Positions 46,292-48,173 of a DNA stretch of 64,000 nt are shown in pieces. The stretch's first letter is position 1. Every line of letters begins with the position of its first letter. The position numbers and the translations under genes were made by a program. The DNA is taken from positions 1 to 64,000 of the forward strand of contig JBHLMG010000011.1 in the NCBI GenBank assembly GCA_048938385.1, written 5' to 3'. Below the pieces are notes generated by a model. It made no database searches. It was given only the letters and a program-made list of their open reading frames with translations, and was not told the DNA's origin. The DNA is from Promethearchaeota archaeon. GTDB taxonomy: Archaea > Asgardarchaeota > Hermodarchaeia > Hermodarchaeales > Hermodarchaeaceae.

Positions 46292-47071
46292 ATGCCATTC
46301 CACATTTTTGATCTCACTGATAACCGTCAACTCTACTTCAAAGTACAAGGAGAGAAAGGTCCACGGCTCATTTTGATCCATAGTTCTTTGAGTAGCCATA
46401 TCGAATGGAAGTATCAAGGTCCGATAGCTGATCACGCTGTGTTGACCTTCTTAGACTTACCAGGACATGGGGAGTCAGATCCTTTACCCGTTCCTGTCAC
46501 AATTGTAGATTTTGTGGCAGTATTGTCACTTTTTCTTCGAAGTAACAATCTCGTCCCTGCGATTATCGTTGGTCATTCAATCGGGGGAGCTATCGCTCTG
46601 CAACTCGCCTTGGACTATCATCAACTCGTAAACGGTTTAATCCTTATAGGCACAGGAGCTAAACTAGGAGTGTTTCCTGCCATCTTAGAAGGCTTGAAGA
46701 CCCATTATGAAAAAGCTATTGAACTTACCTTAGGGCAATTAATGTTTGGAAAGAATGCTGACCCCAATCTTGTTAAACATGCTAAGGAGGAAGCACTCAG
46801 ATGCCCTAAGTCGGTAGGGCTTGCTGATTTTCTAGCCTGTAATACCTTCGATGTCCGCACACGATTACACGAAATCAAGGTGCCTACTCTGATCATCGTG
46901 GGTGATGAAGATAAACTCACACCTCCCAAATGGTCCCATTACCTGAAGGATCAAATCTCCGGTTCTCGGCTTGAGGTCATCCCTGGTAGTGGCCATTTCG
47001 TGATGCAAGAACAACCAGAAGCCGTGAATCATGCAATTCTAATGTTCCTAAATGCTCATGAATGGGTATAA
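46292..47071 (+). CDS. Alpha/beta hydrolase
   Basis: DLPGHGES, GHSIGG, GDEDKLTP, GHFV. Confidence 0.93.
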   Translation: MPFHIFDLTDNRQLYFKVQGEKGPRLILIHSSLSSHIEWKYQGPIADHAVLTFLDLPGHGESDPLPVPVTIVDFVAVLSLFLRSNNLVPAIIVGHSIGGAIALQLALDYHQLVNGLILIGTGAKLGVFPAILEGLKTHYEKAIELTLGQLMFGKNADPNLVKHAKEEALRCPKSVGLADFLACNTFDVRTRLHEIKVPTLIIVGDEDKLTPPKWSHYLKDQISGSRLEVIPGSGHFVMQEQPEAVNHAILMFLNAHEWV

Positions 47072-47144
47072 AAAGCATCTTGATGCTGCCGCATTGGGAA
47101 CCCATATAATATAGGGCAAAGAACCTAATGTGCTTCTCTTCTTC

Positions 47145-47233
47145 GGGCGGAGACGCCGAGAAGCTGGAAGGATGGTCGCATTGGCGGGACCACATGCCAC
47201 CCAAAATCATGGTATTTCTTCTGGTCTCCGCCC
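47145..47233 (+). ncRNA. Candidate structured non-coding RNA (terminal 10-bp stem, three-way junction)
   Basis: GGGCGGAGAC/GTCTCCGCCC closing stem, two internal hairpins, about 60% GC, upstream ATATAATA and downstream TCCTTTTCTCT. Family not recognised and strand is inferred. Confidence 0.5.
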
Positions 47234-47348
47234 TCCTTTTCTCTAACTAGATGTAGTATCTTTCTCCCCATATTACTCGAAGTAGAATATTGAATTAGTA
47301 TGAGTATGGTAATTAGGGTGTTACCCCTCATCAGGACGGTGGTTAATT

Positions 47349-48173
47349 CTGCCTGAGCTTCCCGACATCATACTCCTTACTAGAAGTCTAAACGATGGTT
47401 TAGCCGGGCGAACTATTCACTCTACGAAAGTGAATCAACCAAAAGTGTTGAATCGCTCACCAACATCATTTAAGCGAAAAGTAGAAGGGCGTCAATTCAT
47501 TGGTTTCTGTTACTCCGGTAAGTGGATTGCTGGGAATTTGGACAATCATTGGACTATCGCATTGAATTTAGGCATGGGTGGTGAAGTACGGCTACACTGG
47601 CCAGTAGAGGTTCCTGATCCAACCCGGGAACGGGTTATTTTTGTATTCAACGATGCCGCACAGCTTTGGCTACATTTTTGGTGGTTTGGTCATGTGCATC
47701 TCATACCACCAGGGAAATTGGAAGAACATCCGCAATTAAGCACCATGGGGGTAAACCCCCTTTCAAGCGAATTCACTACGGATCGACTTCTTGAATTATT
47801 AGCGAATAAACGCGGACGAATCAAAAGCTACTTACTCGATCAACGATTCATTGCCGGAATTGGTAATGTCTATGTACAGGACATTCTTTGGCATGCCAAA
47901 CTTCATCCAATGCGAAACGCAAATACTCTCAGTGAGACAGATATTCACAAATTACATAAAGCAATCCAACATGTCCTCCATGAGGGAATTCGGTTTGGGC
48001 CTGGACCAGGGGAGCAAGATCTTTGGGGAAATCGAGGACAATGGGGCAAACTTCCTGGATGGCCAAAGATCGCTTATAAAACGGGAAAACCCTGCCCTAC
48101 CTGCAACGCATTAATCGAAGAATTACGAGTAGGAAGCACAACTAGTTACCTGTGTCCGAAATGTCAAATCTAA
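47349..48173 (+). CDS. mutM: Fpg/Nei family DNA glycosylase/AP lyase with a probable CTG start
   Basis: CTG-CCT-GAG-CTT-CCC-GAC gives (M)PELPD. Also GKW, LGMGG, LLDQRFIAGIGNVY (H2TH) and CPTC...CPKCQ zinc finger. Confidence 0.88.
   Translation: MPELPDIILLTRSLNDGLAGRTIHSTKVNQPKVLNRSPTSFKRKVEGRQFIGFCYSGKWIAGNLDNHWTIALNLGMGGEVRLHWPVEVPDPTRERVIFVFNDAAQLWLHFWWFGHVHLIPPGKLEEHPQLSTMGVNPLSSEFTTDRLLELLANKRGRIKSYLLDQRFIAGIGNVYVQDILWHAKLHPMRNANTLSETDIHKLHKAIQHVLHEGIRFGPGPGEQDLWGNRGQWGKLPGWPKIAYKTGKPCPTCNALIEELRVGSTTSYLCPKCQI

Follow-up and report, generated by a model that had tools for sequence, protein, structure and literature searches.

A putative structured small RNA upstream of fpg in a genus-level clade of Hermodarchaeota

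We know of no non-coding RNA in Asgard archaea beyond the rRNA, tRNA, SRP, and RNase P RNAs, and a literature search found no Asgard non-coding RNA outside these classes. The known 8-oxoguanine riboswitches are variants of the guanine riboswitch that occur in Paenibacillaceae, before deaminase genes (PMC10556655). They are unrelated to the element described here and have the theme alone in common with it. The element lies in a genome of Hermodarchaeota (Promethearchaeota, Asgard) of 2.48 Mb that is 90% complete. It is flanked on its 5' side by an alpha/beta-hydrolase gene (46292-47071) and on its 3' side by a Fpg/Nei glycosylase gene, fpg (from 47349), which is followed by a thioesterase gene and then by a PNP_UDP_1 phosphorylase (purine/nucleoside phosphorylase) gene. 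All coordinates without a contig name refer to the window, that is, the whole stretch of 64,000 nucleotides that was analysed. A sequence-only reading of the window had described the element as an unrecognised structured RNA. This description is upheld by strong conservation among relatives and by the lack of any match in Rfam. In this study, the distribution, transcript ends, fold, and possible function of the element were analysed.

Occurrence and conservation of the element

The core at 47145-47233 contains 53 G or C residues in 89 nucleotides (60%); the two flanks have 42% and 37% and the window as a whole 45%. This composition, the AT-richer flanks, and the perfect 10-bp closing stem had been noted earlier and were confirmed letter by letter. 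By themselves, the letters of the element are not beyond chance. Inverted repeats of 10 nt or longer within 100 nt occur 53 times in the window, a 10-bp repeat like that of the element is not rare, and the folding z-score is -2.5 for the plus strand and -3.1 for the minus strand. The element is regarded as real because it is conserved in relatives, and not because of its composition or fold alone.

The GTDB class comprises only 19 species genomes in two genera. Of the 14 other genomes of the genus, 10 carry the element according to BLAST and a covariance model (R1). The four genomes of the genus without it also have no orthologous fpg locus; their best Fpg match is only 27-37% identical, and their completeness is 72-83%. 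Eight more metagenome contigs carry the element, five of them recovered via a pattern search and three via Fpg orthologues. Thus, every relative that holds the syntenic locus (10 genomes of the genus and eight metagenome contigs) has the element. The order of hydrolase gene, element, and fpg is constant in all 18 loci, with the element on the fpg strand and directly 5' of fpg. Dispersed copies had been named beforehand as a ground against an RNA, and a MITE or other dispersed repeat was rejected: the element is present once in the 2.48-Mb genome by both BLAST and the covariance model, and all relatives have it at the same syntenic position.

A covariance model search of the family, order, and class (the same 19 genomes) gave no further homologues. 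The fpg orthologue of the sister genus (G017; 60% identity) is not accompanied by the element, and the 3' end of the upstream coding region lies approximately 45 nt before fpg. A further contig (L079; Fpg 61% identical) retains the hydrolase-fpg synteny with a gap of 4 nt and no RNA gene between the two (L079:1100-1230). By comparison with this contig, an old hydrolase-fpg pair appears either to have gained the RNA gene by insertion or to have lost it. In a Hodarchaeota contig (L076) and two other contigs, the fpg orthologues have other neighbours and no element. Across 150 genomes of the phylum, matches to the model were weak (17.8-23.7 bits) and were treated as chance because the best and the third-best sit antisense inside long ORFs. 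Pattern-scan matches in bacterial genomes and in other metagenome contigs were also treated as chance; they are GC-rich, have unlike flanks, and lie mostly in long open frames. Judged by these searches, the element appears to be restricted to one genus-level clade of Hermodarchaeota.

Across 11 genomes, the mean pairwise nucleotide identity of the element is 0.87. The same measure is 0.67 for the fpg coding sequence, 0.60 for the hydrolase coding sequence, 0.54 for the 50 nt upstream (the promoter region), and 0.35 for the spacer to fpg. The neighbouring proteins are only 50-65% identical across these genomes; set against this, the near-total fixation of the element points to strong selection and to some specific role. 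Indels of 1, 2, and 3 nt occur in the element among relatives, and the bases downstream of them stay identical. Since these indels are not multiples of three and every frame is shifted, the element is judged to be non-coding. No reading frame of a small-protein gene is conserved in it among relatives; an ORF conserved at the protein level, which had also been named as a ground against an RNA, was therefore not found.

The substitutions in the stems have a strand. In the closing stem P1 (Table 1), three of the 10 pairs vary, through at least four events, and all of these change G-C or A-U to G-U on the plus strand. Read on the minus strand, the same changes give A-C mismatches. The pattern recurs in the terminal pair of the helix P0 and in the variable pairs of the interior models described below. 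As the stem changes pair only on the plus strand, a plus-strand RNA is indicated; the preference for this strand that had been drawn from the G-U pairs of the present genome holds in the relatives. Alternatively, the element could act as DNA, as an inverted repeat bound by a protein or as a regulatory region. The minus strand does fold as well as the plus strand, and inverted repeats of such size are common. However, all stem substitutions yield G-U on the plus strand, a pattern that in DNA would amount to A-C mismatches or asymmetry, and conservation extends over approximately 100 contiguous nt, non-symmetric parts included. We therefore consider a DNA-level element very unlikely. The comparison of relatives shows selection on a plus-strand RNA at nearly every position, and the element is best described as a putative plus-strand, non-coding structured RNA.

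Transcript ends and secondary structure

The features of the element and of its flanks are listed in Table 1.

Table 1. Positions of the predicted promoter, helices, loops, and terminator of the element (window coordinates).
Feature	Position	Strand	Observation
Conserved block just 5' of the TATA box: putative BRE region, possibly with a regulator site	47087-47103	+	10 invariant or near-invariant positions in 11 genomes
Putative TATA box of the RNA gene	47104-47113	+	AT-rich; spacing kept in all relatives
P0, 5' strand; likely transcript start	47132-47138	+	Invariant in 15 distinct sequences
Closing stem P1, 5' strand	47145-47154	+	100% paired in 15 distinct sequences
Purine tract R1 (P0, 3' strand); alternative partner 47219-23	47158-47164	+	6 invariant bases
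Purine tract R2 (P2, 5' strand); partner 47216-23	47165-47172	+	Inner 4 bp invariant, outer part labile
Central segment (hairpin 1 of the sequence-only reading); 47186-92 is the 5' strand of the alternative helix P3	47173-47192	+	19 of 20 positions invariant
11-nt loop segment	47193-47203	+	Invariant in all sequences; unpaired or partly paired in every model
Hypervariable loop segment	47204-47209	+	At least 5 versions of 5-6 nt among relatives
3' strand region: possible partner of 47186-92 (P3) or of 47196-99 (hairpin 2), then pyrimidine tract Y1	47210-47223	+	
Closing stem P1, 3' strand	47224-47233	+	100% paired in 15 distinct sequences
C/U-rich tail with T4 run at 47237-40; likely archaeal oligo-T terminator	47234-47243	+	

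Overall identity in the 50 nt upstream is only 54%, and yet the block in the BRE region is conserved. A second genomic copy of this block was dismissed; it sits within a transporter gene and not before another gene. The AT-rich box that follows lies at a constant distance in all relatives. From this box to 47132, the distance is 21-31 nt, equal to the spacing at the 5S rRNA and tRNA genes of the same genome, and the TATA-like run recognised earlier is accordingly at the position of an archaeal promoter. At the other end, a run of 4-6 T is found within approximately 35 nt after P1 in all relatives except one (G007), and directly 3' of P1 in several genomes. The T-rich tract reported after the element is represented here by the T4 run. 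The 5S rRNA gene of this genome also ends in a T-run. A scan for bacterial-type promoters and terminators found nothing, a type of scan that is not applicable to an archaeon.

Because of the TATA spacing, the invariant heptamer from 47132, and the T-run after the stem, the RNA is placed at 47132 to approximately 47240 of the plus strand, with predicted ends that give a transcript of about 105-110 nt. The conserved unit would thus start at 47132, ahead of the core at 47145-47233. The sequence-only reading had missed this invariant 5' segment (47132-38) and its pairing with 47158-64.

P1, P0, and the inner part of P2 are firm in the alignment. P1 is perfectly complementary over 10 bp (47145-54/47224-33). 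P0 joins 47132-38 to 47158-64 over 7 bp and, like P1, is paired in 100% of the 15 distinct sequences; its terminal pair is G-U in eight of them and G-C in seven. The linker between P0 and P1 varies in length (4-6 nt) and in sequence, and the linkers on both sides of P0 are variable. Since P0 crosses the 5' strand of P1, the predicted topology is that of a pseudoknot. In the single-sequence minimum free energy (MFE) fold, 47158-64 pairs with the downstream pyrimidine tract instead of with 47132-38.

The arrangement of P0 and P1 was likened to what we take to be the nested P1/P2 pseudoknot of HDV-like ribozymes, and by this analogy the RNA could be self-cleaving or processed. The pseudoknot topology and the first pair, G-U or G-C, would suit such a function. 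HDV-like ribozymes also comprise P1.1, P3/L3, and P4, with a catalytic C in J4/2. Nevertheless, only 3-4 variable nt are available where P3 and L3, the active-site loop, must be, and no Rfam ribozyme family matches at E ≤ 10. Self-cleavage is thus given very little weight.

The purine tract 47166-72 is able to pair with the pyrimidine tract 47216-22 (P2). The second stem proposed from the sequence alone is sound in that these tracts can pair, but invariance is limited to the inner 4 bp (47169-72/47216-19). The outer pairs are labile: in G007, three substitutions restore a perfect 5-bp helix shifted by one register, and in the G006 clade outer pairs are lost.

Three models compete for the interior fold, and mutually exclusive pairings are possible. 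Model B consists of the two hairpins of the sequence-only reading (47173-92 and 47194-215). It fits most genomes well, with constrained folding energies of about -29 to -33 kcal/mol. Model C, the rod-like fold given by MFE and RNAalifold, is the most stable in most genomes (-34 to -41 kcal/mol). Its middle part was rejected; invariant bases are paired there with the hypervariable segment 47204-09, and 3-5 of the 15 sequences are unpaired at three pairs. Model A contains a helix, P3, in which 47186-92 is paired with 47210-19 around a 3-nt bulge. In the G013/G011 lineage, a 3-nt insertion exactly fills this bulge, a G-to-A change turns U-G into U-A, and a G-to-U change weakens the competing P2. 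In that lineage, Model A becomes a perfect 10-bp helix (-32.9 kcal/mol), and Model B falls to -17.6 kcal/mol. The only variable base of 47173-92 is 47190, which is C here and U in most sequences and faces G in both models; the pair 47190/47212 is U-G in 10 sequences, C-G in four, and U-A in one.

The three-way junction of two hairpins can therefore be drawn for the present genome, but the insertion and the G-to-A change of G013/G011 break both hairpins and no covariation accompanies them. Similarly, the kissing loops proposed with it are present as a 4-bp complementarity in this genome only; in relatives, only 3 bp (UGG:CCA) are constant, and these do not covary. The homologue search suggested at the time was successful, but covariation was no higher than in the shuffle control: none of the counts for the three interior models exceeded it, and no statistically supported compensatory change was obtained, because the sequences are too alike. 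In these models, the segment 47193-203 is a candidate contact surface.

Function of the RNA

We favour the reading of the element as an independently transcribed, stand-alone, non-coding structured small RNA, with a probability of about 0.55. Transcription would start at or near 47132. The invariant 5' heptamer would pair back to 47158-64 across the 5' strand of P1 to form the pseudoknot, P1 would stack on the purine/pyrimidine helix, and the apical part would expose the invariant 11-nt loop (47193-203) beside the hypervariable loop. Since conservation covers almost every nucleotide and is not confined to a short seed, the most likely role of the RNA would be that of a trans-acting folded scaffold for a protein or a small ligand, and an antisense RNA is thought less likely.

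Several observations argue for a stand-alone RNA. The element has its own putative promoter and T-run. Fpg orthologues exist elsewhere without it, and the spacer to fpg is unconserved and variable in length (76-190 nt). An AT-rich motif before the fpg start could serve as the promoter of fpg itself. A search of the whole genome for 12-mer complementarity gave, as a raw count, only scattered short antisense matches. On the other side, neither a target nor a protein partner was identified. Moreover, the element is always directly upstream of fpg on the same strand, and co-transcription with fpg is possible.

This position and strand are also the starting point for a cis-acting leader of fpg, either a riboswitch or an attenuator, perhaps serving the thioesterase and nucleoside-phosphorylase genes as well. 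The promoter at 47104-13 would then drive the whole unit, and termination by RNA polymerase at the T-run after P1 would depend on the folded domain. The switch would lie in 47186-92, which can pair with either 47173-77 or 47210-19 but not with both. A leader would explain the location immediately upstream of fpg and on its strand in 18 of 18 loci, the T-run directly after P1 in several genomes, and a near-total nucleotide conservation that is typical of aptamers. It would also suit the alternative pairings, of which one is favoured by all the changes in G013/G011 and the other by thermodynamics in the remaining genomes. However, in the sister genus and in other Asgard lineages, fpg orthologues occur without the element. 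The spacer, with 35% identity and a length of 76-190 nt, offers no expression platform touching the ribosome-binding site. In addition, there is no match to an Rfam riboswitch, and the 8-oxoguanine riboswitches are unrelated (PMC10556655). A leader is thus possible but doubtful.

A more specific form of the leader is a ligand-sensing riboswitch that switches the pairings of 47186-92 and controls fpg, the thioesterase gene, and the nucleoside phosphorylase gene through oligo-T termination, possibly in response to a damaged purine. With fpg and the phosphorylase downstream, such a ligand would make biological sense. We consider this form unlikely, more so than a leader in general. If true, the RNA would represent a new class of riboswitch, of which archaea have very few. 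Of the two roles offered at the outset, a novel small RNA or an fpg leader, the small RNA is thus favoured and the leader is weakened by the element-free fpg orthologues and the unconserved spacer.

Some features of fpg were observed alongside. In several relatives, the AT-rich spacer contains a semi-conserved AT-rich motif (AGAATAY-like) approximately 30 nt before the fpg start. In the present genome, this motif is at 47284-47290, approximately 60 nt before the start, and it may be the TATA box or promoter of fpg. At the fpg start itself (47349-47351), a CTG stands directly before the N-terminal Pro codon, where relatives have ATG (three), GTG (four), or TTG (four); either the CTG would be used as a start here, or the gene would be weakened. 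The nearest homologues of Fpg (47352-48170) outside Hermodarchaeota are 55-60% identical and include Chloroflexi proteins, which hints that the archaeon acquired fpg from bacteria.

Comparison with known RNA classes

The Rfam search suggested by the sequence-only reading was carried out with Rfam 15 (4227 models). There were no matches in the window at the gathering threshold. At E ≤ 10, a search of 46900-47500 gave no match overlapping the element, and none was obtained in the loci of five relatives.

ARAGORN found no tRNA in the window, and none on 47001-47400 when introns were allowed and the threshold was lowered. The earlier statement that the element is not a tRNA therefore stands. By eye, neither a T-loop motif nor an anticodon arm is present, and the 10 bp of the terminal stem do not fit a 7-bp acceptor. 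For the genome as a whole, the tRNA count from ARAGORN with introns allowed was only 36, and several of these are doubtful ('Pyl', 'Stop', or introns of 1.6-2 kb); Met, Trp, His, Phe, Lys, and Gln are not represented. Non-canonical introns that ARAGORN misses are probably present in many tRNA genes of this genome.

The genome has its own SRP RNA on contig C23 (RF01857, 117.7 bits, 340 nt, with a canonical domain IV; G000:C23, approximately 172.5-172.9 kb), and the element has no SRP match. This SRP RNA (G000:C23, approximately 172540-172880; L020:1346-1685, minus strand) has a 33-nt insertion in helix 3 of its Alu domain. In none of the 19 class genomes did the bacterial small-SRP model give a hit at E ≤ 0.001, and in this genome all hits of both bacterial models were below threshold. 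The 5S rRNA gene is likewise located elsewhere (G000:C23:185485-185603; RF00001, 79.8 bits), and the element does not match it.

Other classes were also rejected. For an H/ACA guide, the three nucleotides after P1 are CCC, CCU, or CCA-like and thus variable, no ACA is conserved, and no K-turn signature was seen by eye. For a C/D box sRNA, neither a C box (RUGAUGA) nor a D box (CUGA) occurs in the element; matches to sR39 and GlsR13 are outside it and at chance level. For a Y RNA, a search of the genome, which is 90% complete, gave no TROVE protein (PF05731), and P1 has no bulge. A very divergent member of one of these classes (an intron-containing tRNA or tRNA-like RNA, an SRP Alu-like RNA, an H/ACA or C/D guide, or a Y RNA) would have the paired ends, the branched or rod-like core, and the size of the element, and ARAGORN does miss many tRNAs of the genome. 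Against this stand the lack of a T-loop, anticodon arm, ACA box, C/D boxes, and U-turn motif in the element, the SRP RNA and 5S rRNA that the genome has of its own, and the missing TROVE protein. Such an origin is highly improbable.

Taken together, the element appears to represent a real RNA family that has not been described before and has a narrow range within Asgard archaea. The RNA is short enough for synthesis and in vitro probing although the organisms are uncultured, and it is a good candidate for such probing and for inclusion in a family database. Proof of a ligand, a protein partner, or catalysis would make it far more interesting. If binding of a ligand or protein proves true, an RNA-based function would be added to the lineage closest to eukaryotes. 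A merely local small RNA would still be a clean new entry for RNA family databases.

Among known structured RNAs, the purine riboswitch aptamer resembles the element in having a closing stem and two possible hairpins with pairable loops, and the element lies upstream of purine-related genes (fpg and nucleoside phosphorylase). In contrast to the conserved purine core, the junction strands of the element are 20, 1, and 7 nt, and the hairpins are contradicted in one lineage. A purine riboswitch was rejected on the lack of a match to RF00167 and on a constant loop-loop pairing of only 3 bp that does not covary. The SRP Alu domain has in common with the element two adjacent hairpins with G-rich and C-rich loops that are closed by a stem, but the U-turn motif between its hairpins is absent from the element, where 1 nt separates them. 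The absence of both core sequences had been stated in the sequence-only reading. With the HDV-like ribozymes, the element shares a 5'-terminal 7-bp helix that starts with G-U and a next strand that pairs with the 3' end, whereas it has no room for P3/L3. Lastly, the lineage-specific orphan 'motif RNA' candidates of Rfam differ from the element in that it is archaeal (Asgard), has a putative BRE/TATA promoter, and matches no Rfam model. Like them, it has a narrow taxonomic range and no assigned function, and it is short, intergenic, and more conserved than its neighbours, with conserved helices and invariant loops.
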